Of a DNA stretch of 64,000 bases, positions 2,505 to 59,486 are shown piece after piece. Source of the DNA: an uncultured Gammaproteobacteria bacterium (lineage in GTDB: Bacteria; Patescibacteriota; Patescibacteriia; Magasanikbacterales; UBA922); contig OZ246405.1 of assembly GCA_965231005.1 (NCBI GenBank), forward strand, positions 365,877 to 429,876. The letters run 5' to 3'. Within the stretch, counting starts at the first letter, position 1. Each line of letters starts with the position of its first letter. The position numbers and the translations under genes were made by a program. The notes under the pieces are model-generated. The model searched no databases. It saw nothing but the letters and a program-made list of their open reading frames with translations, and was not told the DNA's origin.

Positions 2505-3209
2505 ATGCAAGAAGGTACACTTTTATTTTCATTTATTGCAGGGATTGTTTCATTTCTTTCTCCTTGCGTTCTTCCTATTATTCCAGGATATTTATCATAT
2601 CTTGCAGGAACATCTGCAGATGGAAAGCCTGCATCAAGAAAGGAAATTTTCATTACCAGTATTTTTTTCGTACTTGGATTCTCAGCATTGTTTTCCCTTG
2701 TCGGTGTTCTGTTAAATTCTGCTCTTGAAGCATTTGCGTATGATGCACAGGTTTGGCTGTCACGAGTAGGTGGAATTATTGTGATATTTTTTGGATTGTA
2801 TTTAACAGGATTATTTAAGATTGGTTTTTTGCAACGTGAACACAGACTTCGAATTACACATCATTTTAAATCAAAAAAATTAGCAGCATTTATTTTTGGT
2901 GCAGCTTTTGCTATTGGTTGGAGTCCATGTGTTGGTGCGGTCCTTGGTGGGATTCTTGCACTTGCTGCAACACAGCCAGGAATTGCATTTAGTCTATTAC
3001 TCAGTTATTCCATCGGGTTTGGAATGCCCTTTCTTCTTGTTGGTGCGTTCACAAGTCAGGCTGCAAATATTATCAATAAATACGCTCGTATTCTCAAATA
3101 CATAAATATTCTTTTTGGACTTCTTTTGGTCGGTCTTGGTATTCTCATATTTACGCAAACGCTCAGTCAATACGCGTCTTTTGAAGTTTTGGAAAGCCTC
3201 TTATATTAA
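2505..3209 (+). CDS. ccdA: Cytochrome c-type biogenesis / thiol-disulfide transporter CcdA (DsbD family)
   Basis: LSPCVLPIIPGYLSYLAG motif and a second conserved Cys (WSPCVGAV). Polytopic membrane protein. Confidence 0.85.
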   Translation: MQEGTLLFSFIAGIVSFLSPCVLPIIPGYLSYLAGTSADGKPASRKEIFITSIFFVLGFSALFSLVGVLLNSALEAFAYDAQVWLSRVGGIIVIFFGLYLTGLFKIGFLQREHRLRITHHFKSKKLAAFIFGAAFAIGWSPCVGAVLGGILALAATQPGIAFSLLLSYSIGFGMPFLLVGAFTSQAANIINKYARILKYINILFGLLLVGLGILIFTQTLSQYASFEVLESLLY

Positions 3210-3307
3210 TTGTCATCTCGAGCGATCAGAGCGAGCCTGCCTGCCGGCAGGCAGGTCGAGAGATCTCTCCACTTCACTCGCTCCTCTCGCTCCGGTCGAG
3301 ATGACAA
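3210..3307. repeat. Palindromic element with CCTGCCTGCCGGCAGGCAGG core (copy 1)
   Basis: Perfect 20-nt palindrome at 3236-3255 inside a longer inverted repeat (TTGTCATCTCGAG ... TCGAGATGACAA). Confidence 0.8.
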
Positions 3308-3717: not shown

Positions 3718-3800
3718 TGGTGTATTCAAAAACACCCGCCACAACACATGGTATGAACTGTCGTATTATGTGTTGATGTGGGTGTTTTTTGTGTTCAAGG

Positions 3801-4009
3801 AACAATTAACAAATAACAATTAACAACTTAGTATAGATTACTGTGAAGATTCGCATGTTCTATAGATATTACATACGATTTTTAACTTATCATTCGTTCG
3901 TTATAAAGATTCTATATATTAGATAATAAATAATAAATTTTAGAACCATCCTTATTTTTTAGAAACTTTCTATACGAGTTTGTTAATTGCTAATTGTTAG
4001 TTGTTAATT
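3801..4009. repeat. Family A stop-saturated motif, inverted pair around an A+T-rich spacer
   Basis: Reverse-orientation copy at 3801-3830 and forward copy at 3980-4009. It lies at the junction between the mid-GC cassette and nth. Confidence 0.8.
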
Positions 4010-4610
4010 TTTTTGTGATAGGATCATCTCCAGTTTTGTTCTTCGCTGGGCTGTACTCTCTTCCGTATTCAATCATGCGAAGTGTAAAATGTTTCCACTC
4101 AGATTTTGGAATAATGTTTATTAAATCTTGTTCAATTTTTTTTGGATCACGATGATTGGTCAATCCAAATTGATTTGAAAGTCGTATAACGTGTGTATCT
4201 ACTGCAATTCCCTCTGTAATTCCAAATGCTGCAGCAAGTACGACATTTGCAGTTTTTCTTCCTACACCAGGCAATTTTATTAAATCGTCTATTGTTTTTG
4301 GAATTTGTCCTTCATGTTCTGACAAAAGCATGTTTGCAGCTTCAATCACATACTTTGCTTTATTTTTGTAAAATCCAATAGATGAAATGTCATTTCTAAA
4401 TACATCTAAATCAGCATTGGCATAATCTTCTAGACTTTTATATTTTTCAAAAAGAGATTCTGTAACTTTGTTTACTTGTTTGTCGGTTGTTTGTGCAGAA
4501 AGAACAACAGCAACAAGAAGTTCCCAGTTGTTTGAGTAGTTGAGTGCTGGTTTTGGATTTGGAAATAGTTTTTGCAACTCTTCCAAAATAATAGATACTC
4601 GTTTTTGCAT
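3990..4610 (-). CDS. nth: Endonuclease III (HhH-GPD base-excision glycosylase)
   Basis: Helix-hairpin-helix motif LPGVGRKTANVVL and a catalytic Asp region. The C-terminus has no 4-Cys cluster and its last codons (KKLTTNN) lie inside the family A motif. Confidence 0.8.
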   Translation of the reverse strand: MQKRVSIILEELQKLFPNPKPALNYSNNWELLVAVVLSAQTTDKQVNKVTESLFEKYKSLEDYANADLDVFRNDISSIGFYKNKAKYVIEAANMLLSEHEGQIPKTIDDLIKLPGVGRKTANVVLAAAFGITEGIAVDTHVIRLSNQFGLTNHRDPKKIEQDLINIIPKSEWKHFTLRMIEYGREYSPAKNKTGDDPITKKLTTNN

Positions 4611-9962: not shown

Positions 9963-10140
9963 ACAACTAAAAAAATTAACAACTAACAATTAACAACTAA
10001 CAATTAACAAGTTTTGATAAAATAATCCAATCTAATACCTTGAACAACATTGAGTGTTATAGTAATTCATTGAAGTACTCCTACAAATAAATAAACATTC
10101 TCTACTAAGTTGTTAATTGCTAATTGTTATTTGTTATTTA
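9963..10140. repeat. Family A stop-saturated motif, inverted pair around a spacer
   Basis: Reverse copy at 9963-10010 and forward diverged copy at 10110-10140. Confidence 0.8.
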
Positions 10141-13283: not shown

Positions 13284-13727
13284 CTATTTTTTTAATTCTT
13301 CTTTATCTAATATTTTTACAGTCTCTTTTGCATAGTCTACCTCCTCAACATTAAATTCAATTAACATAATATCAGTCAGTGCGTGAACTTCATGATAAGT
13401 CATGGCTGGGACATATATTTTGTGATTTTCCTCGACTGTATATTCTTCTTCCTCTCCTGTCTTCACATCTTTCACAAAAATTCGTACTTTACCTTTTGCA
13501 AGAAAGAATGTTTCAGGGCTTTTACTTTCTGTTGTGCCTTTGTGGTAGTGTCTTCCACTTATAGATCCTTTGTGTCTGTTTAACACAATAATATTTTTAC
13601 TTGCTCTTACAGGAAATTCATATGCGTTTCCACGTTCATCTTCTTTTAGTGGCTCGATTTTTTCAATTTTGATTAGCATAAGATGGTTTATTTTTGTAGG
13701 TATGACTAGATAGAACACAGATAACAA
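13284..13727 (-). CDS. Cupin-fold protein (WxcM-like/sugar-isomerase-like)
   Basis: SGRHYHKG motif and a beta-rich C-terminus. Confidence 0.4.
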   Translation of the reverse strand: MLSVFYLVIPTKINHLMLIKIEKIEPLKEDERGNAYEFPVRASKNIIVLNRHKGSISGRHYHKGTTESKSPETFFLAKGKVRIFVKDVKTGEEEEYTVEENHKIYVPAMTYHEVHALTDIMLIEFNVEEVDYAKETVKILDKEELKK

Positions 13728-13850
13728 GGATTATCCAGGATTTTCACACCTGCCTGCTCCGACGCAAGGTACGGAGTCCGTATCGCTTGCGCATCGGACC
13801 GGCAGGCAGGGATCAGATCCTGGTCAATCTGTTTTGATCCTGGAAATCTG
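13713..13850. repeat. Palindromic element, split core (CCTGCCTG-insert-CGGCAGGCAGG) with AGAACACAGAT-type ends
   Basis: Core halves at 13749-13756 and 13800-13810 separated by a nested palindrome. Flanks are homologous to the elements at 25403-25506 and 27488-27600. Confidence 0.7.
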
Positions 13851-13887
13851 TGTGCTCTCTAGCAGTACCCAATTTTACATAAAAAGA

Positions 13888-17677: not shown

Positions 17678-18160
17678 ATGAAGAAAACCCTTTCTTTTCT
17701 CTTCGCAGCACTCTTGCTTGTTGGAGCAGGATGTGGATCTGCAACACCAAATGATGGCGCAGAGCCAGGTTCAGCACCAGAAGCAAAAGATACAATGTCT
17801 GCTGCAATGGTTACGTCAAAGTTAAAAAGCGCAGGTATTGATTTCACAGAAGCAGATGACAAGGCAAAACGATTGTCAGTCTTTAGTCCAAATAATCAGC
17901 CAGCAATTGATGCAATTACAAAATATAAGTTTGGTTCAACAAGCGCACAACTTTCTGTTGTTGATTTGAACGATGCATCAAGAAAAGGATTTGTAGATGC
18001 AGATCTCCTTTCACTTTATAATCAAGTAAAAGCAGCAGATGCAGGATATATGCGAAGCTATGCAATGCTTTCTGTTGAAGACGATGACACATCAATGTTA
18101 TTGATCTACAAGAACGCAGATGCAGCACTTGCAAAACAAATTGAGGGTGCATTGAAATAG
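17678..18160 (+). CDS. Lipoprotein, function unknown
   Basis: Signal peptide with an LLVGAGC lipobox. Confidence 0.55.
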   Translation: MKKTLSFLFAALLLVGAGCGSATPNDGAEPGSAPEAKDTMSAAMVTSKLKSAGIDFTEADDKAKRLSVFSPNNQPAIDAITKYKFGSTSAQLSVVDLNDASRKGFVDADLLSLYNQVKAADAGYMRSYAMLSVEDDDTSMLLIYKNADAALAKQIEGALK

Positions 18161-18180
18161 TAATTTCTTTGAAAAATTTA

Positions 18181-18206
18181 AACCCGGCCTTTTGGCCGGG
18201 TTTTTG
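18181..18206 (+). terminator. Rho-independent terminator
   Basis: AACCCGGCC-TTTT-GGCCGGGTT hairpin followed by a T-run. Confidence 0.75.
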
Positions 18207-18305
18207 TTACGACTCTTTATTATTCTTTTGCAAAAAATAGTAAAGAGTCGCCCACCGTCTTTCGTTGGTAGGCGACGGTGGAAGGCCTATGTCTGCGAGT
18301 TGCTT

Positions 18306-18665
18306 TTATGACAACAATCTGGGGAGAAAATCGCGAAGCTCAGGTTTCTCGCTTACGTGCGTGCAGCCTCTTTGCAGCTGTTGTGCACGTACCTCAGAAT
18401 CAGACGACACTCCGATGATGGGACCTGAGAACTTGACCACGTCGAGGAGATGACGAAGCAGTGCAAATGATTCATCTGTTTCTTCGCCGATGTACCCGTC
18501 CAGGACAACTGCCCAGGGAGGTTTTGGCAATGAACGCAGAATCGCACGTGCTTCTTCATATCCAGCAACGAAGACCGGTTCAAAGTCCTTTCCGAGTGCG
18601 ATCCTCAGAAGTGCGAGCCAGCGGTCTTCATCTTCGAGGATCAGGATGGTTGGTTTGTCTTGCAT
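18306..18665 (-). CDS. Stand-alone response-regulator receiver (CheY-like REC) protein
   Basis: ILILEDED acidic pocket, VVLDGYIG phospho-acceptor Asp, GVSSD and a SEKP Lys-Pro motif. The start lies 2 nt after the upstream stop. Confidence 0.65.
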   Translation of the reverse strand: MQDKPTILILEDEDRWLALLRIALGKDFEPVFVAGYEEARAILRSLPKPPWAVVLDGYIGEETDESFALLRHLLDVVKFSGPIIGVSSDSEVRAQQLQRGCTHVSEKPELRDFLPRLLS

Positions 18666-18667
18666 CT

Positions 18668-19288
18668 CTACTTCTCGACCGTGTACGGGAAGGCCCAGTA
18701 CTTCGGAACCTTGAGATCCATGGAGAGGTTGCTCGTCATGTGGATGCCGAACTTGCCATCCGTTGGGTTGAAGCTGATGTGTGGCATTTTCCCGCATTCG
18801 AGCTGTTCGTGAAGCGCGTAGAGCCGGGTCTTCTTTGGATCCAGTCCGGTCTTCTTTTGTGCGTCGTCCGTCCGCCAGGTGTACTGGTAGAAGCTGAGCA
18901 GCGCAGAGAAGTTGAGCGGCTTGCCCTTCTTGTACGCGATGTACTCGGCGACCTGCTTCAGCGTGGTCGTTGAGTTATTGGTTGTGTAGATCTTCACGTC
19001 CTTGATCGATCCGTGTTTTTCGGAGAAACAGCCGCCTTGCAGTTGCTTGTAGAATCCATCCCAGTGCGACAGGTCGAGTGCTTCGATGCGCTCAAGCAGA
19101 GCCAGGCCGTTAGTGTGCTTGGGCACGTCGGTCTTGGCGGTCGTGTCCTTGCTCACGGACGCGTCAGCATGGGAGCCGGCGTCGGAGTTGGTGAGCAGGT
19201 TGTCGTCCAGTGTCGGGCAGTCGTCAGCGCAGCCAGTGCTGGTGATCAAGAACATGGCAAGGAAAATCGCGGTTGCAAAGTGTTTCAT
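18668..19288 (-). CDS. Lipoprotein, function unknown
   Basis: Signal peptide plus ITSTGC lipobox. AAGGGGG RBS. Confidence 0.55.
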   Translation of the reverse strand: MKHFATAIFLAMFLITSTGCADDCPTLDDNLLTNSDAGSHADASVSKDTTAKTDVPKHTNGLALLERIEALDLSHWDGFYKQLQGGCFSEKHGSIKDVKIYTTNNSTTTLKQVAEYIAYKKGKPLNFSALLSFYQYTWRTDDAQKKTGLDPKKTRLYALHEQLECGKMPHISFNPTDGKFGIHMTSNLSMDLKVPKYWAFPYTVEK

Positions 19289-19409
19289 GGTATACCCCCT
19301 TAGGTCACTGCACGGTTGGTTAAAAGTCGGTTGTTGAAAGTCCGTGCGGTGTCTACAAGGGGCTATGGTTAAAAGAGCGTGTACTTATTATATCGAAATA
19401 AGATAGCTA

Positions 19410-19438
19410 ACAATAGCAAAATATCAATTTTTTGTCAA
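19410..19438 (-). promoter_or_regulatory. Sigma70-like promoter TTGACA-N17-TATTGT (minus strand)
   Basis: Sits within a roughly 130-bp module that is duplicated at 20340-20480. Confidence 0.5.
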
Positions 19439-19569
19439 GGCTTAGATATAAAATCAAAAAAACACCTAATTTAAGATGTTTTTTTGAACCATCCCCCGAG
19501 CATCACACATCAGCATTATCCCTAGGGGATGGTGTTGCGTGTGTCGGAGGGTGAACTCCTTGGTTGTTG

Positions 19570-20301
19570 TCAGTGCAGCGGTTCGATGGTGAACCATTCG
19601 CTGTCGTGTTTGTCCAGCACGATCTCCATCTCTGTGCCGACCTTGTCCCAGCTGTTCTCGTGATCTCGGAACAAAACCTGCACTGGAACAACGTCCTTGT
19701 ACAAAGGCGTGGTGTGCAGGCGAATGACCGCAGGACCTCCCACGGTGTACATGCTGAACTCCAGCTTGCCGCCGCAGATGACCTCTCCGATCGCCATGGG
19801 CTTGCCGTTGCAGGCATCGACCGGGTAGCTGTTGACCTTGCCAGAGCGGGCGCTCAGGGTGACGTTCTTCGGGCAGGTGATGAACACGTTGCCCATTGCC
19901 ATCCAGAGCTCGCGCTCGTTCTTCGGATCGGTGTTGTTTTGCATCAGGTGGCAGGTCTTGTAGGTCGGTTCGGAGTCGATCTTGGTGCTTGTCGCCTGCT
20001 CCTTGTCAGTGCACGGCGATGTGCTGCCGAGGTTGACGTGCTGGTCGCTGGCGCAGCCGCCCATGAACAGGGTAACTACGATGCCAGCGGCGACCGCAGT
20101 CCGACCGATCGGCGCAGCTGATTGCTTCTTCTCCAACCGGTTCAGCTTGACCAAGATGAGCGACAGGCCCACCGAGATTTCGAGCAAGAAAACGAAAATT
20201 AGCAGCATTGTGATATTTCCGCTCCTCTGTAGTTCAAATACGGTGAACCCACCAGCAAACAAGATAAGAAAAAAATGCGATATAGAAAGGATTCGTTCCA
20301 T
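19570..20301 (-). CDS. Membrane-anchored protein with two N-terminal TM helices, function unknown
   Basis: AAGGGGG RBS. TM segments followed by a Cys-containing extracytoplasmic domain. Confidence 0.55.
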   Translation of the reverse strand: MERILSISHFFLILFAGGFTVFELQRSGNITMLLIFVFLLEISVGLSLILVKLNRLEKKQSAAPIGRTAVAAGIVVTLFMGGCASDQHVNLGSTSPCTDKEQATSTKIDSEPTYKTCHLMQNNTDPKNERELWMAMGNVFITCPKNVTLSARSGKVNSYPVDACNGKPMAIGEVICGGKLEFSMYTVGGPAVIRLHTTPLYKDVVPVQVLFRDHENSWDKVGTEMEIVLDKHDSEWFTIEPLH

Positions 20302-20399
20302 GTTGTACCCCCTTGAATGAGCGCGCCAGGGTGACGCGGTCGGTCCAAGGGGTTACAACAAAAAGAACATACTTCTATTATACGAAATAGAAACAGCTA

Positions 20400-20428
20400 A
20401 ATATAGCAAAATGTTAATGTTTTGTCAA
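20400..20428 (-). promoter_or_regulatory. Sigma70-like promoter TTGACA-N17-TATATT (minus strand), duplicate of the 19410-19438 module
   Basis: About 80 percent identical by eye to the 19357-19500 region. Confidence 0.5.
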
Positions 20429-20556
20429 GGGTAAGGTATAAAATCAAAAAAACACCTATTTTAAGATACCTATAAAAAAGCATAAACCCCGCAACGCGAT
20501 GTCACGAGGCTATGCCTTGTGCGCGTGCGGGGTGGTTGACTTGTGTCGTCTCCTTG

Positions 20557-21741
20557 TTATTTTGGTTCGATGCTCAGCTTCACCATTCTCATCAAGCATC
20601 TGGTCTTGCCTGCCCATTTGCAGTTCGCTTTGACCGGAAGGATGATACGTCCCTTTTTGGCAGAGACAAGGTCTGCTGTTACAGAACCGTTTGAATGGTC
20701 TCGAATTGTCCCATTCCAATTTTCGTAGTGTCGGCAAGTACCGCTGCTACCACAGTTTGATCCGAGTTTAACTGTCACAAAGCGTGGTGCGTACTTGTTT
20801 GTTCCTTCCACATCCATCCGAAACGAAAGAGTTGTGGTGATGTTTGTGGGGAATTTTCCAAGTCCAGGACAGCGAATGTTTGGGACTCTCCTATCTGCTC
20901 CGCCAGCTGGAAATTGGATGTCAGGGATTTTCATGTTTTTGCATCCAACAGCTTCCGGGACTTTTACTGCCGGCAGTGTGAGTAGGTAGTTCCCTTTGTA
21001 GGAAGTGATGAACCGGATTTGTGCTTGTGGAGCAATCACATCGCCAGGCTTCCACCCTCGTGCAGGTTTGGAATTGATCGTTCGTTTGCAGATCATCTTT
21101 CGGGCAGTTGTGTGCGAGAGCGAGAGCGGAGGCTTTCCTGGATCTGTTGCATTTTTGAGCTCTCCTTTGCATGTCATGTTGCTCAGCTCCCGCCTTTTGA
21201 TTTGATGCAATTTGCAATCTTTGTATGGAAATCTGATCACACAGTAAGCACTGATCACCAGTTCAGACAAGATTGACTCTCCTGCAACAGGAGATGTACT
21301 TTGACCACTTGCCTCGATGATTGCACCATGTTTTTTTTCTGCACGGACGCATTTTTTCCATGCATCGGTCACATGTGGAGGAAGATATCTCCTTTCTACC
21401 ATGAGCTTTCCAATGTCAGTGGTCCTTCTTCGTGCAGCTTCACACATGATCTTTGCAACAGATTCGTAGTTGGAGCGTTTCGACGACTGACTTCCGCCAA
21501 TGTCTGCGTAGTGGAGTTGTGCCTTTCTGTCTGACCAGCTGTCCCTGATTCGTGTGTATTTCTTGCATTGTTTTTGGTACCATGCAAGGCTCTTGTTCCA
21601 GGCGCTATTGTTGACTTGAGTGCTTGCACCGTAGATCAGGATTTTTTCGCAGTGATCAGGTGGGCTTGCAACTGCGGGTGATCCGAACAAGAGTGACATG
21701 CTCGCAATGAACATGAAGATCCGAGACAAAAAAAATCGCAC
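20557..21741 (-). CDS. Secreted cysteine-rich protein (394 aa), function unknown
   Basis: GTG start preceded by GGAGGA. N-terminal signal peptide and more than 20 Cys residues. Confidence 0.5.
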   Translation of the reverse strand: MRFFLSRIFMFIASMSLLFGSPAVASPPDHCEKILIYGASTQVNNSAWNKSLAWYQKQCKKYTRIRDSWSDRKAQLHYADIGGSQSSKRSNYESVAKIMCEAARRRTTDIGKLMVERRYLPPHVTDAWKKCVRAEKKHGAIIEASGQSTSPVAGESILSELVISAYCVIRFPYKDCKLHQIKRRELSNMTCKGELKNATDPGKPPLSLSHTTARKMICKRTINSKPARGWKPGDVIAPQAQIRFITSYKGNYLLTLPAVKVPEAVGCKNMKIPDIQFPAGGADRRVPNIRCPGLGKFPTNITTTLSFRMDVEGTNKYAPRFVTVKLGSNCGSSGTCRHYENWNGTIRDHSNGSVTADLVSAKKGRIILPVKANCKWAGKTRCLMRMVKLSIEPK

Positions 21742-21787
21742 TGTGTCCTCCGTGCTGAAATGGATGGGATTGTGGTGAAACCATTTG

Positions 21788-21876
21788 GCTTCACTCGCGG
21801 AGAGAGCGGGATTTGAACCCGCGAGCCCTTTGCAGGACTACTGCTTTTCGAAAGCAGCGCATTCAACCAGACTCTG
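21788..21876 (-). tRNA. tRNA-Ser (anticodon CGA)
   Basis: Hand-folded cloverleaf: GGAGAGA acceptor, CTGCT/AGCAG anticodon stem with loop TTCGAAA, long variable arm, GCGGG-TTCAAAT-CCCGC T-arm. Confidence 0.8.
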
Positions 21877-21892
21877 CCATCTCTCCATAATG

Positions 21893-22106
21893 ACAATTAG
21901 CAATTAACAAAAAACAATTAACAATTTTTTCATCACGACAAACAATATTTTCAGCTTTTAGATGTCGCAGATAACTATCTTTGGTGAAGAAATACAACCG
22001 CCAGCAGTATCAGGATTCGTTCATTATCTTTTTGTAAGATTAAGTAACGGAATAAGAGTTTGTTAGTTGTTAATTGTTAGTTGTTAGTTGTTAGTTTTCT
22101 ATCAAT
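21893..22106. repeat. Family A stop-saturated motif, inverted pair around a spacer
   Basis: Reverse copy at 21893-21924 and forward tandemised copy at 22069-22106. Confidence 0.8.
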
Positions 22107-23961: not shown

Positions 23962-25458
23962 TCAAACCTTAAGTTTTAGCACACTTTTAAGCGTCTCTTT
24001 TGAAATCGCGCCAGTTAAAATAACCATGATTCCATAAATTCCTGCACCAAGAATTGCAAGTGCAATAACATGAAGATTTGGAAGAAGTAATACAATTACT
24101 GCCATAACAATGGCAGAGAAAAATAATTTAAATAATGTTCTATAATCAAGAATTTCGTTTGTGTAATGTCGTATAACAAGAAAGAGAAAGAGTCCTGCAT
24201 AGACTTCTGAGAAAACTGTTACCCATGCTGCTCCATACATACCAAATTTTGGAATGAAAATGAGATAGGCAATTAAAGAAAGAATTGCATTTGAAATGTA
24301 GACCCACATGGTTTGTTTTTGTTTATCAATTGCAACAGCTGTGTGTCCAAATATTGCGCCAAAGAATACGCCAAATACTGCAAGCGACAAAATTTGGAGT
24401 GGTCTTCCTGCGGCAATAAATTCATTACCAGCAACAAAGGCGATAATTGGTTCTGCAAGAATGATTGTTCCAATTGTGACAGGAATTGCAAACAACATCA
24501 TTGCATCAAACGCTTGCTGATATTGTTGTTTAAATTGTTTTTTATTGTTTCGTGACCACGCAAATGCAAGCAGAGGCAAAATAACTCCCATCATCATCAT
24601 GGCTGTTTGACCGAGGATGTCTATGACACGATAGGCTGCACCGTACAGTCCAACTTCTTCAAATTTTTGAAACCATGAAAGCAAAATAACATCACCACGC
24701 AAATACACAACATTGAAAATAATTGAAATAGCAATTGGCCAGGATTTTTGCATAATTGATTTCCAAATGTGCCAGTCAAATGCAAAGCGAATTTTCGTTG
24801 TTCGTGATGCAGCAGCCCACATGAAGAGCACATATCCAATGCTCGAGAGTCCAACAACAATCATGACTGGAACAAATCCATATTGACCTGTAATCATGAG
24901 CCATAATCCTGCAACAAGAATAATTCTTCCAATAACTTCTCCTGCTGCTTGAACATGCATTTGTAATCTTGTTTGGTAATAGCCAACAAACACTTGGTTC
25001 ATTGCTATTGCAAGAAATGAAATGGTCAAAAGTGCAATTGCATGTTTCACTTCAATAGGATAGGGAAAGAACAGTGCAACCAGTGGCGCTAGTGTAAGGA
25101 AAAATGTTGCGGTTACAAATCGGAATCCTAATAAATTTTTTAACAGTGTTTCTTTATTATATTTTTGCTCGCTCAACATTTGTGCAGTGACTGGTGTCAT
25201 TCCAAAGTCAATCAAAATACCAATAAACTGCAAAAAAGAAATTGCTGTAATATACCATCCAAATTGAGATACACCTAAGTATCTTGTCATCATGCCAATA
25301 GCAATTAAACCAAAAATAGTTGAGATTGCTTTCCCAACGATTTGAATGGCTGTATTGTGTGCGACTTTTCTTGTTGATTCCACAGTTTTTACATTAAAAA
25401 AATAGAACACAGATTTAACGCCTGCCTGCCGGCAGGCAGGGATCAGACGGATTTTCAC
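23962..25458 (-). CDS. Polysaccharide biosynthesis flippase (MOP/Wzx-like)
   Basis: 498 aa with about 14 TM helices. Confidence 0.55.
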   Translation of the reverse strand: MKIRLIPACRQAGVKSVFYFFNVKTVESTRKVAHNTAIQIVGKAISTIFGLIAIGMMTRYLGVSQFGWYITAISFLQFIGILIDFGMTPVTAQMLSEQKYNKETLLKNLLGFRFVTATFFLTLAPLVALFFPYPIEVKHAIALLTISFLAIAMNQVFVGYYQTRLQMHVQAAGEVIGRIILVAGLWLMITGQYGFVPVMIVVGLSSIGYVLFMWAAASRTTKIRFAFDWHIWKSIMQKSWPIAISIIFNVVYLRGDVILLSWFQKFEEVGLYGAAYRVIDILGQTAMMMMGVILPLLAFAWSRNNKKQFKQQYQQAFDAMMLFAIPVTIGTIILAEPIIAFVAGNEFIAAGRPLQILSLAVFGVFFGAIFGHTAVAIDKQKQTMWVYISNAILSLIAYLIFIPKFGMYGAAWVTVFSEVYAGLFLFLVIRHYTNEILDYRTLFKLFFSAIVMAVIVLLLPNLHVIALAILGAGIYGIMVILTGAISKETLKSVLKLKV

Positions 25459-25506
25459 GGATTTTAAATCCGTTTTAATCTATTCAATCCGTTCGATCCG
25501 TGTTCC
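25403..25506. repeat. Palindromic element (core CCTGCCTGCCGGCAGGCAGG) with AGAACACAGAT/ATCCGTGTTC inverted ends
   Basis: Core at 25421-25440. Imperfect terminal inverted repeats of about 11 nt. MITE-like. Confidence 0.75.
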
Positions 25507-25600
25507 ATCATTGTAATTTATTGATCATACTATAGCAGTTTTGTACTCTAATTTCAATCTTCGCAAATAGAGTATTTTTTGCTATACTGTCTCTACACAT

Positions 25601-27487
25601 ATGAAAGTAACAATGCAAACAACAAGAAGCTTTGTAAGGTTTTGTGCCCTTTCATTTTTTGCATTTGCATTATTCTTTTTTTCATCAGCTCCTGTAGACG
25701 CAAAAAAGCCAGAAGCAAAGGTAAGAGATGACTCATATACTGCGCGGTATGTTTCTCAGACAGAAAAGGATCCAATTTCTATTGAAGCTGGTTCAACAAA
25801 AACAGTAACAATTACTTTTAGAAATAATGGAACGGCTACGTGGAATAATACAGGTAGTCGTTATATTTCTGCATACACAATGGAACCGCGATATCGTGAT
25901 TCTGAATTTAAAGGACCGAACTGGATTGGTGCAAATCAGACAGGGAAAATGGGAGGCGTTATAAAACCTGGAGAGAATGGAAAACTTGCTGTCACACTCA
26001 CTGCTCCAGAAAAAGTTGGCAAGTACACTGAATGGTTTTACCTTGCTGCAGAAAATTATACGTGGGTAAAAGATGGTTATTTCTTTTTAGAACTTAATGT
26101 TATACCAAAGAAAGAAGTTCCAAAAGTAAAAGTTGCTGCAACTGACAATGCTCCATTGGCTGAACAAGCTGCTGAAGAAAAAAAGGAGATTGTATACGCT
26201 GCAAATAATATTGGACAAAATGTTCGTGAAGTTTATGTAAAAGGTGGGGAACAAATTCGACTTATTACACTATTTCAAAATATAGGAGATACTGCTTGGG
26301 AAGAATATGGCATTCTTGCAAATACACCTGTCTCAACAAGTGATTCTCGGCTTTCTTTTGCAGATCAATCATGGCATGACACAGATTTAGTTTTAACAAA
26401 GAGAAAAGTAGTTGAACCTGAACGATCACTAAGAGAAGAATTTTATTTTCGTGCGCCAGCCAAAGAAGGTGACTACACAGCAAGATTTTCTTTGACTGCA
26501 AACACTGTAGACGTTCCAGATGTTTCTGCAGAAGTTGTTGTTCATGTAACACAAGATGCTCCAAGTGATTATAAAAAAGCAACATTCTATGCAGCACCAG
26601 AGCCAGAAGAAGCAGTTCGTCTTGATAGTGAACCAAGAATCCGCGTTGGCATGATGCTTCCAATGGAATTTGTTCAATTCCGAAGTGAAGAAGAGGATTA
26701 TCGTGTGATTGTTGGAGGAGAAGAATTAGGTATTTTGCCGAAAACACATTTAGGAGTGTTTATATTTGATGGGACATATCATTCATTCAAAGGTGCAGAG
26801 GTTGATTATGAAGGTCCAGGATATGTTCGACTTGAACCTGTAAATAATGTTCATGCAATTTATTCATTATCAAACTACGAGCGGTACGTGAAATGGAAAG
26901 GACCAAATAATTTTAATATGTACAGAGGTGCATTTGAATATCGAAAAGGAAAGGTAGATGGTAAGATGTATGCTGTAAATGATTTATTGTTTGAAGATTA
27001 TGTTGCTGGAATTGCTGAGACGAGTAATTTGGCTAATATTGATTATATAAAAGCTCTTCTTGTTGCAGCGCGATCATATGCATATAAAGCAATAGGGAAG
27101 TATCCATTCTTCGATGTTCTTGGAAATACCTATGATCAATTATATCTTGGATATGAAAGTGAACGGCTCATGCAGCGCGTGCTACAGGCACAACAGGAAA
27201 CACGTGGGTACATGGTTACATACGATGGAGAAATTGTGACAACACCATATTTTGCAAATAGCACTGGCATGACAAAAAGTTGGAAACAAGTATGGGGTGG
27301 AAGAAAATCATATCCATGGCTTGTGCCGGTTGAAGCAAAGTATGATCGTGGTCAACCAATGCGAGGTCATGGAGTTGGTATGAGTGCGCGAGATGCTGCA
27401 ATTCGTGCTGACAAAGAGGGAGCTACGTGGCAAGAACTTTTGAAACATTATTATACTGGTGTTGAAGTCGAAAAAATTTATAATTAA
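25601..27487 (+). CDS. SpoIID/LytB-domain protein
   Basis: C-terminal YFANSTGMT...GHGVGMSARDA block typical of SpoIID/LytB. N-terminal signal/TM plus repeat domains. Confidence 0.75.
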   Translation: MKVTMQTTRSFVRFCALSFFAFALFFFSSAPVDAKKPEAKVRDDSYTARYVSQTEKDPISIEAGSTKTVTITFRNNGTATWNNTGSRYISAYTMEPRYRDSEFKGPNWIGANQTGKMGGVIKPGENGKLAVTLTAPEKVGKYTEWFYLAAENYTWVKDGYFFLELNVIPKKEVPKVKVAATDNAPLAEQAAEEKKEIVYAANNIGQNVREVYVKGGEQIRLITLFQNIGDTAWEEYGILANTPVSTSDSRLSFADQSWHDTDLVLTKRKVVEPERSLREEFYFRAPAKEGDYTARFSLTANTVDVPDVSAEVVVHVTQDAPSDYKKATFYAAPEPEEAVRLDSEPRIRVGMMLPMEFVQFRSEEEDYRVIVGGEELGILPKTHLGVFIFDGTYHSFKGAEVDYEGPGYVRLEPVNNVHAIYSLSNYERYVKWKGPNNFNMYRGAFEYRKGKVDGKMYAVNDLLFEDYVAGIAETSNLANIDYIKALLVAARSYAYKAIGKYPFFDVLGNTYDQLYLGYESERLMQRVLQAQQETRGYMVTYDGEIVTTPYFANSTGMTKSWKQVWGGRKSYPWLVPVEAKYDRGQPMRGHGVGMSARDAAIRADKEGATWQELLKHYYTGVEVEKIYN

Positions 27488-27600
27488 TAGAACACGGATT
27501 GAACACCTGCCTGCCGGCAGGCAGGGATGTAACGGATTTTTACGGATCTAATCTGTTTAGATCCGTTTAATCCGTTGGATCTGTGTTCTATTCAGTACTA
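27488..27600. repeat. Palindromic element (core CCTGCCTGCCGGCAGGCAGG) with TAGAACACGGAT/ATCTGTGTTCTA inverted ends
   Basis: Core at 27506-27525. Homologous to 25403-25506. Begins immediately after the SpoIID-like stop codon. Confidence 0.75.
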
Positions 27601-27609
27601 AGAGTAATT

Positions 27610-27996
27610 ATGAAAACTATTCCACAATCACTCCGAACATGGTTTGTCATTCATTTTGTTATCGACATGACATTTGGTTTGCCACTTTTGTTTGCACCAG
27701 AAATGTTATTGCAATTATTTGATATTGTTTCTGTAGAAACACTTACTGCACGACTTGTCGGAGCTGCACTTGTTGGAATCGGTGGCACATCACTTTGGAT
27801 GCACAAGGGGAGTGTGGATCAATTTAAAACAATGCTTGAAGTAAAATTGCTTTGGTCAGGATCTGCACTTGTTGCAATTGCCCTTGCCTTTGGCAGTGGA
27901 GCGCCGGCATTTATTAGTGGCTTGGCATTTGCAATTTTTCTTGTCTTCTTTTTTGTGTGGCACCATTACTATAAAGGATTAAGAAATAATATTTAA
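27610..27996 (+). CDS. Membrane protein, function unknown
   Basis: Four hydrophobic helices. Start chosen at the ATG after the repeat. Confidence 0.45.
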   Translation: MKTIPQSLRTWFVIHFVIDMTFGLPLLFAPEMLLQLFDIVSVETLTARLVGAALVGIGGTSLWMHKGSVDQFKTMLEVKLLWSGSALVAIALAFGSGAPAFISGLAFAIFLVFFFVWHHYYKGLRNNI

Positions 27997-31238: not shown

Positions 31239-33839
31239 TTAGTATGAGAAGCGGTCGTCCTCGTCTTCTTCTTCAGTTTCCTCCTCCTCTTCATCTTCTT
31301 CGTATTCTTCATCGTCCTCCTCATCGTCTTCATGAAGATCATCTTCGTCATCAAGTTCTTCTTCCTCTTCTTCATAGTCCTCGTCATCCTCATCATCAAG
31401 TTCTTCTTCCTCTTCCTCATCATCAAGTTCGTCCTCATATTCTTCGTCCTCTTCAAGATCATCTTCGTCATCATCTTGATCGTCTAACTCTTCTTCTAAT
31501 TCTTCATCAAGTTCTTCTTCATCTACATCTAATTCATCTTCCTCTTCAGCCTCTTCCTCGTCTGAATATACATTAAATTCCCCTCCACTGTTCATTTTAG
31601 CATAGGCTTCTTCCTTTGTCACAAGGATTTCTCTTGGCTTTGCTCCCTGTGATGGTCCAATGATTCCTGCTTCTTCGAGTTCATCTAAAATTCTTGCAGC
31701 TCGGGCATATCCAACTCGTAATCTTCTTTGTAAAAATGATGCACTTGCTTTTCCTGAATCTAAAATAAGTTTTTTTGCTTCTTCAAACAATGGATCGTGG
31801 TCATCACTTGCACCACCAAACATACTTGCAGTTCCACCACCTTTTTCAGTAATTGAAGGATCGTACTGTGGTTTTTCTTTTCCTTTTAAATGTCGAACAA
31901 CTTTTTTCAATTCCTGTTCACTAATATATGCTCCTTGAATTCTAATTGGCTTTGACAATTCAGCACTTGAGTAGAGCATGTCTCCTCGTCCAAGTAATTT
32001 TTCTGCACCAGGCGCATCTAAAATTGTGCGTGAGTCAACAATCGATGCAACAGAAAAGGCAACACGTCCAGGAATATTTGCTTTCATAAGTCCTGTAATA
32101 ACATCAACACTTGGACGCTGGGTTGCAACTAATAGATGAATACCAACTGCACGTGCCATTTGCGCGAGTCTAATAATTCCTGCTTCAACTTCGTTTGCTG
32201 TTGTTGCCATTAAGTCAGCAAGTTCGTCAATCACGAAAACAATATGTGGCAATTTTTCATTTGGATTTTTTTTGTTAAATGAATTGATGTCACGACAGCC
32301 TCGTTGTGCAAGTAATTCAAATCGTCTGTCCATTTCACTAATTGTCCAGTTAAGCGCATTAACAGTTTGTTTCGGTTTTGTAATAACTGGTGTGAGAAGA
32401 TGTGGGATACCGTTGTACATTGTTAATTCAACACGCTTTGGATCGACCATAATCATGCGGAGTGTTTCTGCAGTATTTTGGAATAACAAACTCATGATAA
32501 TGGTGTTCACACAAACAGTTTTTCCAGAACCTGTTGCACCAGCAATTAAAAGGTGAGGCATACGAGGAAGGTCTGCAAACCATACTTTTCCTGCAACATC
32601 TTTTCCAAGCGCAATCATCATGTTGTGATCACGATTTTTAAATTCTTTATTTTGTAATAATTCTTTAAACGTCACCATTGCTGCTTTTTGATTTGGCACT
32701 TCAATTCCAACAAGAGATTTGCCAGGAATTGGCGCTTCAATTCGAATAGGGTGTGCAGCAAGAGCAAGGGCAAGGTCGTTTGCCAATGTTGTAATTCTTG
32801 AAAGTTTAACTCCTTTGGAAGGTTTAAATGAAAATTGTGTCACAGTTGGTCCAACACGAGCTTCTCCCATGGTGACATTAATATTAAATTCAGCAAGCGT
32901 GTCTTCAATGATTTTGCTGTTTGCTTTAATATCCCCACTGGTTGGTTTTCCTTTTTTGCTGGACAATAAACTTACAGGTGGAATTGGTCGGATAATAACA
33001 TTTTGCGTATACGAAGCAGAGTGTGTTGTTGGAGGCCCTGCAGTTCCTTGACGAGAGGTTGGTGTGACAATTGGTTCTTCGTCATCATCTTCGTCCTCGT
33101 CATCATCTTCGTCCTCGTCATCATCTTCGTATTCTTCATCGTCCTCATCATCAACATATTTTTTAGAAAATGATCGTTCATCTTCGTCCTCATCGTCCTC
33201 GTCCTCATACTCTTCATCATCGTCTTCGTCTTCATCATATTCTTCTTCATCTTCCATTTCACCATTGCGAACAAACAATGTTGTGACTGCACGAACAAGA
33301 TATGCTCCAAACCAACCCATTCCTTCCATTAATTTTCTGTGGAATAAAATGAAGTGGGTAATTGCTGTATTAAATATTAATAAGAATGCAACAATGCCTA
33401 AACCAACAAGGAGTACAATTCCTGCAATTGTCCCGAGGTATGTTTTCAGTGGCCATGCAAGCATTCCAAACACACCACCACCATGTCCTTCGAGTGCTTG
33501 GCGCCACATATCTGTCGTATCAAAGCCAATGTGCATGATGCTTGAAAGAGACAAGAAGAAAAGAATTGCTCCAAAAAGATGTGTTGCTCTGTAATTGTAT
33601 TCAATGTCTCGAATAAGAAACCAAGCAAGAATTCCAATAACAAATGGAGCAGCATATCGAATTGATCCGAAAAGAAAACTGAGTACCCACTGGTCAAGAA
33701 TAACACCAATTGTTCCTGCTTTATCAAAAAAACTTAATCCAATAATAATTGCCAAAATAAAAAGAAGGACAGCAATAATGCCCTTTGATAATACTGGATC
33801 ATGACTATAATATTTTCTTCTGCGACGACGACGCGGCAT
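31239..33839 (-). CDS. ftsK: DNA translocase FtsK/SpoIIIE with an extra poly-acidic internal linker and C-terminal tail
   Basis: N-terminal TM block, Walker A GATGSGKT, gamma winged-helix and an Asp/Glu low-complexity tail of about 130 aa. Confidence 0.9.
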   Translation of the reverse strand: MPRRRRRRKYYSHDPVLSKGIIAVLLFILAIIIGLSFFDKAGTIGVILDQWVLSFLFGSIRYAAPFVIGILAWFLIRDIEYNYRATHLFGAILFFLSLSSIMHIGFDTTDMWRQALEGHGGGVFGMLAWPLKTYLGTIAGIVLLVGLGIVAFLLIFNTAITHFILFHRKLMEGMGWFGAYLVRAVTTLFVRNGEMEDEEEYDEDEDDDEEYEDEDDEDEDERSFSKKYVDDEDDEEYEDDDEDEDDDEDEDDDEEPIVTPTSRQGTAGPPTTHSASYTQNVIIRPIPPVSLLSSKKGKPTSGDIKANSKIIEDTLAEFNINVTMGEARVGPTVTQFSFKPSKGVKLSRITTLANDLALALAAHPIRIEAPIPGKSLVGIEVPNQKAAMVTFKELLQNKEFKNRDHNMMIALGKDVAGKVWFADLPRMPHLLIAGATGSGKTVCVNTIIMSLLFQNTAETLRMIMVDPKRVELTMYNGIPHLLTPVITKPKQTVNALNWTISEMDRRFELLAQRGCRDINSFNKKNPNEKLPHIVFVIDELADLMATTANEVEAGIIRLAQMARAVGIHLLVATQRPSVDVITGLMKANIPGRVAFSVASIVDSRTILDAPGAEKLLGRGDMLYSSAELSKPIRIQGAYISEQELKKVVRHLKGKEKPQYDPSITEKGGGTASMFGGASDDHDPLFEEAKKLILDSGKASASFLQRRLRVGYARAARILDELEEAGIIGPSQGAKPREILVTKEEAYAKMNSGGEFNVYSDEEEAEEEDELDVDEEELDEELEEELDDQDDDEDDLEEDEEYEDELDDEEEEEELDDEDDEDYEEEEEELDDEDDLHEDDEEDDEEYEEDEEEEETEEEDEDDRFSY

Positions 33840-33843
33840 AGTC

Positions 33844-33982
33844 TACTAGTTATTAGTTACTAGTTATTAGTTATTAGGACAAAATAGAAATATTTTTTTG
33901 CAAATGAAATAACATATTGGCACAAAACAAAAATTGCAAAAAATCTATTAACTAGTAGCTAATAACTATTATCTAATAATGT
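33844..33982. repeat. Stop-saturated inverted-repeat spacer family C (TTAGTTACTAGTTATTAGT arms)
   Basis: Arms of about 35 nt in inverted orientation around an A+T-rich loop. Other copies at 45958-46066 and 62132-62232. Confidence 0.75.
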
Positions 33983-34683: not shown

Positions 34684-34813
34684 GGTCGTCTCCAAATGTG
34701 TGGGTGGAGGAATGCGTTGGAGTCTATCAAAAATAGACGTAGTATTCTTATCAATAAAAGTAGTTTGTGTCAATTATAGAATCATTCTATTTGAAGAAGA
34801 AATGGGAATTAGA

Positions 34814-34925
34814 AACCTGCCTTTGCCGGCAGGCAGGCTAGAAATTGGAAATTGGGGAATTCTCAAAAGCTATCTTGATCTAGTCCCCAAATTTCTAATT
34901 TCAAATTTCCAGTTTCCAAAAACAA
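34814..34925. repeat. Degenerate palindromic core (CCTGCCTTTGCCGGCAGGCAGG) fused to a family B inverted-repeat spacer (AGAAATTGGAAATTGGGGA arms)
   Basis: Hairpin-capable arms at 34838-34857 and 34883-34916. Other family B copies at 36083-36135, 46801-46888 and 60337-60417. Confidence 0.75.
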
Positions 34926-43777: not shown

Positions 43778-43952
43778 AAGCAGTTCCTTACAAAGCTCAG
43801 AGGAGCCGCCATTATTGTATTTGTCCAAGTACAATTATTGCGGTTTCTCTGTCATAAACGCAAGACAGCAGAAAAACGTAAGTCCCAAACCCCAACCCAA
43901 AACCCAGACAAGGACAATCAGCGACCACCTGGTTGCTACAGAGGAGGCAGCA

Positions 43953-45824: not shown

Positions 45825-45957
45825 CTGCTGTCAAGAGAACATCAAGGAGACGTCTTGGACAGGGGGAGTACGGTACACCAGTACCCGAAACCCCTGTCCA
45901 GATATTTAGAAAGAGTAAGATTCAAATAGTATTTGGTCTTTTTTTATTTTCAAAATA

Positions 45958-46066
45958 ATAGTTATTAGATATTAGTTACTAGTTATTAGTCTTGATTTTA
46001 CCTATACATTATTATATTGTATCTATACTAAACTAATACCTAATACCTAGTAACTAATAATTAGTA
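45958..46066. repeat. Family C stop-saturated inverted-repeat spacer
   Basis: TAGTTATTAGATATTAGTTACTAGTTATTAGT ... ACTAATACCTAATACCTAGTAACTAATAATTAGTA. Confidence 0.75.
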
Positions 46067-46072: not shown

Positions 46073-46804
46073 ATGTCCGGCCATAGTAAGTGGAGCAAAA
46101 TTCGTCATAAAAAAGGAAAAGCAGATGCAGCACGAAGTAATATTTTTACCAAGTTATCACGCGGCATTACTGTAGCAGCACGAGAAGGCGGTGGAGATTT
46201 AGATATGAATTTTAGTTTGCGTCTTGCAGTAGAAAAAGCAAAGGCAGCAAATATGCCAAAAGATAATATTGAACGAGCCATAAAGCGTGGAACAGGTGAA
46301 TTAAAAGATGGTGCAGTCATAGAAGAAATTTTGTACGAAGGATTTGGCCCAGAAGGTATTGCATTTCTTGTTGATGCAGTCACAGACAACAAGAACAGAG
46401 CAGTTAGCGAAATAAAACATGCGTTTTCAAAATATGGTGGGTCACTTGGTGGACCTGGAAGTGTTCAGTGGCAGTTTGAACACAAAGGGGTAATCAGATT
46501 TACTACAGACAAAAAAAATAGTATCCCAGATTGGGAAACAGCACAGCTCGAACTTATGGATGCAGGTGCAGAAGACATTATTGAATCAGAAGAAGGCGTT
46601 GAAATTATTACAAATATGAAGCAGTTTCAACCGACGACAAAGGTATTTGAAACACTTGGCATTGAAGCAGATGAATCTGGAATTGAATGGATTGCAAAAG
46701 AGTCTCTCTCTTTAGATGAGCAAGCCTCTGAAAAAGTGGAAAAACTTTATGACGCGCTCGACGAGCTAGATGATGTGAGGTCGGTGTTTACAAATGAAGG
46801 TTAG
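46073..46804 (+). CDS. yebC: YebC/PmpR-family transcriptional regulator
   Basis: N-terminal MSGHSKWSKIRHKKGKADAARS is diagnostic. Three-domain length. Confidence 0.9.
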   Translation: MSGHSKWSKIRHKKGKADAARSNIFTKLSRGITVAAREGGGDLDMNFSLRLAVEKAKAANMPKDNIERAIKRGTGELKDGAVIEEILYEGFGPEGIAFLVDAVTDNKNRAVSEIKHAFSKYGGSLGGPGSVQWQFEHKGVIRFTTDKKNSIPDWETAQLELMDAGAEDIIESEEGVEIITNMKQFQPTTKVFETLGIEADESGIEWIAKESLSLDEQASEKVEKLYDALDELDDVRSVFTNEG

Positions 46805-46888
46805 AAATTGGAAACTGGAAATTGGGGATTGTAGAGAGATATTTTTTGTTAAATCCCGAATTTCTAATTTCTAATTTCCAATTTCTAT
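46801..46888. repeat. Family B inverted-repeat spacer
   Basis: AGAAATTGGAAACTGGAAATTGGGGA ... TCCCGAATTTCTAATTTCTAATTTCCAATTTCT. It abuts both the yebC stop and the ruvC start. Confidence 0.75.
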
Positions 46889-46892
46889 TGCT

Positions 46893-55279: not shown

Positions 55280-55346
55280 ACTAAGTGAGTTTACATTTAA
55301 TTTAAAATAGCACCCTTCAAGAATGAGGGGTGTTGTTTTTGAAAAA

Positions 55347-58998: not shown

Positions 58999-59121
58999 AA
59001 AAGTAAAAAACCTTACTGTCATTGCGAGGAGCGAATGTGAATGAGTGACGAAGCAATCTCCTGGGCATACATTAATTCTTCTTGTTCTTTTTGTAACCAA
59101 AAAGAACCAAAAAGTTTCGAG

Positions 59122-59460: not shown

Positions 59461-59486
59461 CTGCTACGCTCAAGCAAAGCTTGAGC

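Follow-up and report, generated by a model that had tools for sequence, protein, structure and literature searches.

Solo copies of a 20-nt palindrome in a Patescibacteria chromosome and its coupling, across phyla, to a small GIY-YIG nuclease gene at tRNA genes

Results

Six copies of a palindromic core in a 64-kb window

The stretch of DNA analysed here (the window) comprises 64,000 nt of contig OZ246405.1. It is an ordinary bacterial chromosome segment that carries rpoB, rpoC, the genes for PNPase, FtsK, RecA, RuvC, and S15, and a gene for a SpoIID-like protein whose closest named homologues are from Magasanikbacteria and Paceibacteria. Within the window, a 20-nt palindrome, CCTGCCTGCCGGCAGGCAGG (the core), is present in four exact copies, versus none expected: 100 dinucleotide-preserving shuffles gave no match even when three mismatches were tolerated. 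Two further copies are altered. Copy 2 is split at the core centre by a nested palindrome of 41–42 nt, for which no match to the 41-nt sequence was found among the other loci, and copy 5 has TT inserted after position 7 (Table 1). The six copies of the original prediction were thus confirmed. All six lie in intergenic spacers, mostly directly 3' of a stop codon. Outside the 20 nt, the six copies have no common sequence.

The window sequence is 100% identical in four independent assemblies from two sequencing runs, and the motif is therefore not an assembly artefact. No strain polymorphism of the window copies was detected, as all available contigs are 100% identical. At the gathering threshold, Rfam 15 matches only the two tRNAs of the window and none of the cores. 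A Pfam scan of 40 open reading frames (ORFs) of the window revealed no transposase, Y1 or RAYT (the tyrosine transposase that accompanies repetitive extragenic palindromes, REPs), TnpA, or GIY-YIG domain. The six sites are best explained as solo copies of a discrete 20-bp palindromic module, of which four are intact, one is split by a palindrome that nested there later, and one has a 2-nt indel.

Table 1 Core copies, host hairpins, and other features of the window.
Feature	Position	Description
Core, copy 1 (solo, exact)	3236-3255	Side hairpin within the host hairpin when folded
Core, copy 2 (split)	13749-13810	CCTGCCTGC 13749-13757; nested palindrome 13758-13798; CCGGCAGGCAGG 13799-13810
Core, copy 3 (solo, exact)	25421-25440	In one arm of host hairpin 2b; symmetric arm without core
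Core, copy 4 (solo, exact)	27506-27525	
Core, copy 5 (degenerate)	34816-34837	CCTGCCT[TT]GCCGGCAGGCAGG; flanks TTAGAAA / CTAGAAA
Core, copy 6 (solo, exact)	59260-59279	With the flanking G/C, a 22-nt palindrome; lies 100 nt upstream of tRNA-Leu (59379-59461)
Host hairpin 1	3210-3307	Ends TTGTCATCTCGA / TCGAGATGACAA; directly 3' of the stop codon of a DsbD-like gene (2505-3209)
Host hairpin 2a	13711-13858	TAGAACACAGAT ends; holds the split core; fold z = -7.1
Host hairpin 2b	25403-25507	Ends TAGAACACAGAT / ATCCGTGTTCCA; between divergent flippase and SpoIID-like genes
Host hairpin 2c	27488-27590	Ends TAGAACACGGAT / ATCTGTGTTCTA; directly 3' of the SpoIID-like stop codon; fold z = -11.6
Host hairpin 3	34799-34916	AGAAATTGGAAATTGGGG family; copy 5 in left arm
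Context of copy 6	59121-59288	Bounded by a GGGTGGCAG / CTGCCACCC inverted repeat; no GIY-YIG remnant
Core-free paralogue of host hairpin 3	46792-46889	Internal empty site
Core-free paralogue of host hairpin 3	60327-60424	Internal empty site
Hairpin with 16-mer ends	59017-59062	GTCATTGCGAGGAGCG...GTGACGAAGCAATCTCC; just 3' of the PNPase gene
A+T-rich hairpin family	68-125, 3796-4014, 9964-10139, 21892-22099, 62056-62118	Arms AACAATTAACAACTAACAA / TTGTTAATTGCTAATTGTTAG
Other hairpin families with repeat-built arms	33844-33979, 45952-46066, 62133-62235, 55345-55471	TACTAGTTATTAGTTACTAG type, AAGGAAATATAGAAATAAGG type
G+C islands	18000-22000, 43815-45824, 60498-61988	47-54% G+C in a 37% G+C genome
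Three ORFs without Pfam match	18668-21741	In G+C island
FtsK homologue	31239-33839 (-)	Long acidic D/E-rich low-complexity stretches

Later insertion of the core into host hairpins

In single-strand folds, each core makes up a separate side hairpin that branches from the bigger hairpin of its host, with z values of −3 to −11.6; the DNA fold of host hairpin 1 has an energy of −33.2 kcal/mol (z = −6.2). At least four intergenic hairpins of this Patescibacteria chromosome, unrelated to one another, have received the 20-mer as an inserted side branch. The inverted ends of approximately 11 nt, TAGAACACRGAT, which the original prediction reported for three elements, are real for host hairpins 2a, 2b, and 2c (five matches versus 0.65 expected). 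Its grouping of the copies as one family resembling miniature inverted-repeat transposable elements (MITEs) is not upheld, as the repeated unit is the 20-nt core, set secondarily into different host hairpins. The accompanying idea of mobile hairpins survives in so far as the core is a discrete inserted unit, but not as a MITE with shared ends.

Three observations show that the core was inserted later into these hairpins. Host hairpin 2b aligns with its own reverse complement save for the extra core in one arm. The AGAAATTGGAAATTGGGG (AGAAATT) hairpin that holds copy 5, which is also the AGAAATTGGAAATT hairpin, has two core-free paralogues in the window. Finally, the core-to-end distance in copy 2 differs from that in copies 3 and 4. 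As passengers, the window copies furnish intergenic hairpins with a strong G+C side hairpin.

The host hairpins themselves appear, from comparison with relatives, to be lineage-specific. The spacer orthologous to that of host hairpin 2b holds no such element in either of two relatives (L216 and L219; L numbers denote loci outside the window). In L216, the TAA stop codon of the SpoIID-like gene directly abuts the ATG of the next gene, and the upstream spacer contains neither a hairpin nor a core. The relative compared at these spacers has the same gene order and a SpoIID-like protein that is 68% identical. No target-site duplication was established for host hairpins 2a–2c: their flanks permit a TA duplication at most, and the empty site in L216 is strongly diverged. 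Among the host hairpins, only those of the TAGAACACAGAT type resemble MITEs, in their 12-nt terminal inverted repeats (TIRs), their length of approximately 85–125 bp, their several copies, and their absence from the orthologous spacers of the relative. This TIR motif was absent from the 120 genome loci examined, and no parent element with the same ends was found.

The GGTCGAGATGAC motif of host hairpin 1 is also present three times in a Dokdonia locus (L022). In addition, the 16-mer ends of the hairpin 3' of the PNPase gene also flank a core in a metagenome-assembled genome (MAG) of the Planctomycetes–Verrucomicrobia–Chlamydiae (PVC) group (L049, 924–978). These common ends indicate that some host hairpins also occur across phyla.

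Distribution of the core and its sites of insertion

In a scan of one genome per species (596 Gb), at least 120 stretches with the exact 20-mer were found, so that it occurs in at least 120 species genomes across many phyla; approximately 0.5 matches would be expected by chance, by our own estimate. A search for further copies had been proposed as a check in the original prediction, and its outcome is strongly positive. By record title, the matches listed include approximately 36 from the candidate phyla radiation (CPR), 38 from Bacteroidota, 10 from Omnitrophota, and 8 from Planctomycetota/PVC, with Bdellovibrionota, Nitrospirota, and others among the remainder. Some MAG taxon labels are unreliable: L104 is labelled Gammaproteobacteria, and its GatB is closest to Shapirobacteria. 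The core is also borne by Bacteroidota isolates (Winogradskyella, Flagellimonas, Longitalea, Flavivirga, Aquiflexum, Aestuariivivens, and Agriterribacter).

The borders of the core are sharp and its flanks are unrelated. For 80 of 127 copies, the palindrome is not extended by even one base, and the base at −1 is A in 54. Within 12 nt on each side of these copies, no conserved tetranucleotide was found, the only preference being for A at −1 and −3. Exact 7-nt flanking duplications are present at four of the 127 genomic copies (0.07 expected), and near-duplications of at least 6 nt at 14 (1.9 expected). Of 40 copies from a viral collection, one has an exact flanking duplication of 7 nt and another has one of 8 nt.

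Insertions can be read directly where the core interrupts a known gene. In tRNA genes (the tRNA-Arg of an isolate in L085, and those in L015, L037, and L099), removal of exactly 20 nt restores a canonical D arm, and there is no duplication. In long, real ORFs, the core is always in one reading frame, which reads LPAGRQ; such copies are found in FtsK (L013), GatB (L104), RfbB (L021), and a 1120-aa protein (L014). Because the real coding copies are in frame, the core is concluded to be translated. Relative to solved homologues in the PDB, the LPAGRQ residues are additions in surface loops. An empty site is available for GatB (L256): 12 close relatives (up to 94% identity) read IETDD-GQT-VYTPL, whereas L104 reads IETDD-LPAGRQV-VYTPL. 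At the DNA level, GATGA-CGGTCAAAC-TGTC became GATGA-[core]-TGGTT, a gain of 20 nt and a loss of 8 nt, for a net change of +12. Removal of the core at the RNA level, as a mini-intron, was considered and rejected, since the ORFs "restored" by a 20-nt deletion were all spurious and of low complexity.

The centre of the core is itself a site of insertion. Cores are nested at the centre of other cores in L018, L042, L021, and L203, other palindromes insert there too, and in an unrelated locus (L163) the core is split at the same point as in window copy 2. With respect to genomic context, the zone within 300 nt of a tRNA gene is enriched 3.6-fold in cores, and approximately 85% of copies are not near a tRNA. 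Copies also lie in spacers, in many cases in DNA prone to form hairpins: once the core is taken out, the 90-nt flanks are better folded than randomly chosen sites of the same loci (mean z of −1.15 versus −0.24; z < −2 for 26% versus 9%; Mann-Whitney p = 6e-8), a comparison confounded by intergenic location.

Carriage by phages was considered and rejected, as 2.9 million viral contigs yielded only 35 core-bearing stretches and one GIY-YIG relative. One "viral" contig of 29.5 kb (IMGVR_UViG_3300037242_000417; L240, L247, and L248) holds six exact cores and may be either a piece of cellular DNA placed in the wrong class or a phage whose host is rich in cores. Other perfect G+C-rich palindromes also recur: TCCGCCAGCTGGCGGA in three loci of unrelated genomes (L011, L016, and one more) and TCCCGATAGCTATCGGGA in two (L062 and one more), while GGGACAGGTCGCGACCTGTCCC is present three times in L112. 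The core may therefore be one of several cross-phylum palindromes. In L039 (1022–1290), an insertion of approximately 190 nt lies 3' of tRNA-Val. A core is present within it, its last 22 nt repeat the 3' end of the tRNA, and its GAGCGAGTGGAAGTGAGCGAGAG segment is similar to the arm of window hairpin 1.

A small GIY-YIG nuclease gene linked to the core

In an all-against-all comparison of the ORFs from 120 core-bearing loci, the sole informative recurrent neighbour was a small GIY-YIG ORF that starts right after the core in four loci (L037, L118, L106, and L060). No recurrent transposase was found among these ORFs, near 125 copies. The linked protein has approximately 80 residues (77–100 aa) and consists of the GIY-YIG catalytic domain alone (PF01541, E = 1e-13 to 1e-14), with no separate sequence-reading DNA-binding domain. 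Its invariant residues are Y5, Y15, G17, R25, H29, E49, and R58 to Y63. In sequence, it comes closest among solved structures to two UPF0213 proteins, BH0048 and EF2693, and to the structure-specific nuclease Slx1 (E = 7e-11 to 6e-4), and a comparison of the fold gives the same relatives (model predicted local distance difference test score (pLDDT) of 92; template modelling (TM) scores of 0.58–0.68). The linked nuclease is thus nearest to UPF0213/Slx1, and not to I-TevI or UvrC.

The linkage also holds when the loci are chosen by protein. A protein search returned homologues from CPR and Bacteroidota, and the Shapirobacteria and Dokdonia homologues, picked by this search alone, both have the exact core 23–43 nt upstream of the ATG. 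When metagenome contigs were scanned by protein similarity, 437 relatives were obtained, of which the best 80 were examined. An exact core lies within 120 nt upstream of the ORF in 50 of these 80 loci, a core with up to three mismatches in nine more, and a tRNA gene lies within 120 nt downstream on the same strand in 63. When the 80 loci were collapsed to 59 distinct ORFs, chosen by protein similarity alone, 58 had the core or a derivative nearby. By type, the core is exact and upstream for 35 ORFs, exact and downstream for two, an exact half-core (split or 19-nt forms) for 15, a half-core with one mismatch for six, and a degenerate copy only for one. As the proteins are only 45–55% identical to the query, conservation is higher for the DNA motif than for the gene.

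Architecture of the cassette at tRNA genes

The cassette has a usual order: a copy of the 5' part of the tRNA, interrupted by the core, the ORF, and then the intact tRNA, which begins at the stop codon of the ORF or within a few bases of it. The disrupted tRNA copy starts at approximately nt 1 and ends at nt 15–46, most often in the anticodon arm; across the cassettes, this second copy of the tRNA can be partial or full. The tRNAs involved are those for Leu, Arg, Lys, Phe, Asn, Met, Gly, and Ser. Within the tRNA copy, the core is inserted after nt 9, 11, 14/15, 18, 20–24, or 31/32, is nearly always preceded by A, and lies on a loop/stem border of the cloverleaf or beside one. A mirror form, in which the intact tRNA is followed by the ORF and then by a tRNA copy broken by at least one core, is seen in L146, L147, L185, L203, and L190.

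More complex arrangements were also observed. In L169 (~905–1500), an intact tRNA-Arg, a GIY-YIG ORF, a tRNA copy with two core variants, and a second GIY-YIG ORF stand in tandem. In L060 (2751–4892), an hsdS-like ORF, for the S-subunit of a type I restriction system, has a GIY-YIG cassette and its core joined in frame into its middle, between the two target-recognition halves. Window copy 6 was also examined as a decayed cassette with a tRNA-Leu fragment, and this was rejected because its GGGTGGCAG repeats are unlike the 5' end of tRNA-Leu.

Other features of the window

The window contains further hairpins, which are formed by short-period repeats. Members of an A+T-rich intergenic family, located between genes and beside tRNA-Ser, have imperfect repeats as arms and a loop of approximately 100–150 nt, and other families likewise have repeat-built arms. 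Comparable low-complexity inverted arms flank cores of other phyla (L005, L035, L050, L058, and L101). The G+C islands, which were probably acquired horizontally, encode the three ORFs without a Pfam match, a phosphoglucomutase-family gene, and a 669-aa cysteine-rich protein with Dicty_CTDC repeats. The acidic stretches of the FtsK homologue account for a 32-copy "direct repeat" family in the repeat finder.

Discussion

Proposed role of the nuclease

The core is a discrete insertion module that is present across phyla and is physically coupled to a GIY-YIG/tRNA cassette. From this coupling, we infer that the nuclease mobilises the core and by what route. On balance, it is probable that the palindrome serves as a cis substrate of this structure-specific GIY-YIG nuclease and, being non-autonomous, is disseminated in trans. 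This reading is proposed because the protein has no DNA-reading domain and falls in a structure-specific clade, because the targets are loop/stem junctions, hairpin arms, and the tip of the core, and because the junctions (0, +7, and −8 nt) resemble break repair and not a fixed transposase chemistry. The nuclease would nick or break structured DNA, such as the cloverleaves of tRNA genes, hairpin arms, or the tip of another core, and the 20-mer would be joined in there, either in the course of repair or in the form of a hairpin oligonucleotide that had been excised. For the gene itself, homologous recombination through the conserved tRNA is the probable means of spread. As the only shared homology, the conserved tRNA is proposed to be the reason that the duplicated segment starts at tRNA nt 1.

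Several points weigh against this proposal. The binding, cutting, or moving of the core by the nuclease is presumed from linkage. Approximately 95% of the genomic copies are solo, and no GIY-YIG gene or remnant is present in the 64-kb window or in the 6.6 kb beyond it (the best hit of a six-frame GIY-YIG profile search of the window, inside rpoC, has E = 0.09). The insertion junctions are heterogeneous, with no duplication at the tRNA sites, a loss of 8 nt at the GatB site, and flanking duplications at six of all 167 copies (five of 7 nt and one of 8 nt), a pattern that does not match one clean mode of transposition. The stronger folding of the flanks, which would favour the proposal, comes from a comparison confounded by intergenic location. 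Finally, the constancy of the core beside the ORF, which may stem from cis-preference, could instead reflect another role, for example as a hairpin in the 5' untranslated region (UTR), in expression, or in protection of the cassette against deletion between the tRNA repeats.

A bolder form of the proposal is held only tentatively and is the less probable of the two. It describes a minimal two-part mobile system, in which an 80-residue Slx1-like nuclease would excise a 20-nt hairpin and re-insert it at stem/loop junctions of structured single-stranded DNA. Such a system, a nuclease plus a ligase, would parallel IS200/IS605 with its single-strand "peel and paste" transposition, and the nuclease gene would home into tRNA genes across phyla and duplicate them, one copy being disabled by the hairpin.

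Alternative explanations

The alternative that survives best, although it is unlikely, is that the core is a non-mobile cis element of the GIY-YIG/tRNA cassette, which might break up the direct tRNA repeats and so guard the ORF against deletion, or stabilise a 5' UTR hairpin; solo copies would then be relics of decayed or recombined cassettes. This would agree with the constant presence of the core in the disrupted tRNA copy beside the ORF and with the enrichment of cores near tRNA genes, and recombination between the tRNA copies downstream of the core would leave a tRNA and a solo core without a duplication, as in L085, L015, and L099. In contrast, the solo cores in GatB, RfbB, FtsK, and other ORFs are not explained as relics, nor are those in hairpins without tRNA-like flanks or ORF remnants, and the large majority of copies are not near a tRNA at all. 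The many different positions of the core within the tRNA copy likewise point to repeated, independent insertions.

It is improbable that the hairpins are terminators, insulators, or mRNA stabilisers of the host that recur because the sequence works well. Five of the six window copies are at gene ends and the folds are very stable, but a T run after or an A run before the core accompanies only 20 of 129 copies, a scan of 25300–27700 shows no terminator at either core, and no Rfam family matches. Furthermore, the orthologous spacers of relatives have neither hairpins nor cores, some copies are located within ORFs and tRNA genes, and it is implausible that many phyla would have converged on an identical 20-mer. 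The transcriptional insulator put forward in the original prediction likewise fits these results poorly.

Less probable still is the assignment, also raised there, to REP/bacterial interspersed mosaic element (BIME) or IS200/IS605 palindromes, for which a Y1 (HUH) transposase or RAYT from another part of the genome would supply the mobility. The core shares with these a short, G+C-rich, intergenic palindrome and several sites without duplication. However, it has no GTAG/CGTC head and no conserved flank, is identical across phyla and hence not species-specific, and is found within ORFs and tRNA genes. As for the cognate transposase suggested at the outset (IS200/IS605 TnpA), there is no Y1_Tnp match in the 40 window ORFs scanned and no recurrent transposase in the 120 core-bearing loci, and outside the window it is a GIY-YIG nuclease gene that is physically linked to the core. 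An assembly, adapter, or synthetic artefact, or the artificial marker once suggested, can be dismissed, for although a perfect palindrome in many assemblies could suggest a linker, the four assemblies agree, the motif has a natural spread over phyla that includes isolate genomes, the frame is kept in coding genes, and the motif holds a conserved position with respect to tRNA genes and one protein family.

Comparison with known systems

REPs are lineage-specific and extragenic, and are paired with an HUH/Y1 enzyme. The core is like REP/BIME elements with their RAYT in being a short, dispersed, G+C-rich palindrome with one dedicated small nuclease-type gene and mostly non-autonomous copies. In contrast to REPs, which carry a GTAG or CGTC head (PMC3733652), the core is headless, is the same across phyla, enters ORFs and tRNA genes, and has as its enzyme a GIY-YIG protein at a tRNA gene. 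It also differs from the IS200/IS605-derived palindrome-associated transposable elements (PATEs), which have left and right subterminal hairpins and TnpA, in that its unit is one 20-nt palindrome, which no conserved sequence adjoins. Rickettsia palindromic elements (RPEs), reportedly described by Ogata et al. in 2000, are said to be selfish palindromes that occur in frame in protein genes and in RNA genes. They are approximately 100–150 bp in length and confined to Rickettsia, and to our knowledge no enzyme has been assigned to them. The core shares the in-frame insertion into protein genes and the insertion into RNA genes, but it has 20 bp, spans phyla, has a linked nuclease gene, and is unrelated in sequence.

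Mobile GC clusters or palindromic repeats are known from organelle genomes, namely those of yeast mitochondria (PMC4478555) and of Volvox (PMC2670323). The core is similar to these in that short, G+C-rich palindromes invade A+T-rich spacers, nest within each other, and have no self-encoded transposase; the organellar clusters are species-specific, whereas the core is found in bacterial chromosomes and has a candidate enzyme. Among GIY-YIG endonucleases, T4 SegB cuts in the tRNA gene region of T4. Seg proteins and I-TevI belong to the UvrC-like branch and have a DNA-binding domain, and we know of no palindrome associated with them. As with SegB, the GIY-YIG gene described here is located among or next to tRNA genes, and its likely spread is by break-induced recombination via conserved flanking genes. 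In contrast to Seg and I-TevI, it encodes only an 80-aa Slx1-like catalytic domain and is accompanied by a duplicated tRNA and an invariant 20-bp palindrome. Free-standing GIY-YIG homing endonucleases have been reviewed (PMC2988022), and T4 SegB has been described (PMC13096335). The catalytic domain that marks a GIY-YIG homing cassette is found in the related loci and not in the window.

By both sequence and fold, the closest relatives of the linked protein are the standalone GIY-YIG proteins of the Slx1/UPF0213 group (YazA, YhbQ, BH0048, and EF2693). Slx1 cuts branched and stem-loop DNA (PDB entry title 6seh). The core-linked subfamily behaves as a selfish cassette, unlike the prokaryotic Slx1-like proteins that are regarded as vertically inherited repair proteins (PMC1564403).

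Significance

For the concept of a selfish palindrome served by its own small nuclease, REP/RAYT, RPEs, and organellar GC clusters are precedents, and T4 SegB is one for GIY-YIG homing genes at tRNA genes. No description of the 20-mer, its half-sequences, LPAGRQ, or a link among GIY-YIG, tRNA, and palindrome was found in the searchable literature. A phylogenomic survey of GIY-YIG proteins (PMC1564403) mentions neither tRNA linkage nor palindromes, and the element is not mentioned in a 2026 survey of tRNA introns in Patescibacteria. The combination of the 20-mer with a miniature nuclease in tRNA genes has the look of a selfish DNA system that had not been described before.

Should the link prove functional, it would define a selfish system of very small size that would cross phyla (CPR, Bacteroidota, Omnitrophota, and Planctomycetota), edit tRNA genes, add seven-residue LPAGRQ loops to essential proteins such as GatB, FtsK, and RfbB, and seed nested palindromes in streamlined genomes. 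This would give a role to a large group of genes annotated as "GIY-YIG nuclease family protein" and would explain some missed or "pseudo" tRNA calls and spurious small ORFs in MAGs. An 80-residue nuclease that is apparently paired with a defined 20-bp site could also serve as a tool. Were the two-part system to hold true, it would be the smallest known pair of autonomous and non-autonomous transposons and would represent a new activity for bacterial Slx1-like proteins.

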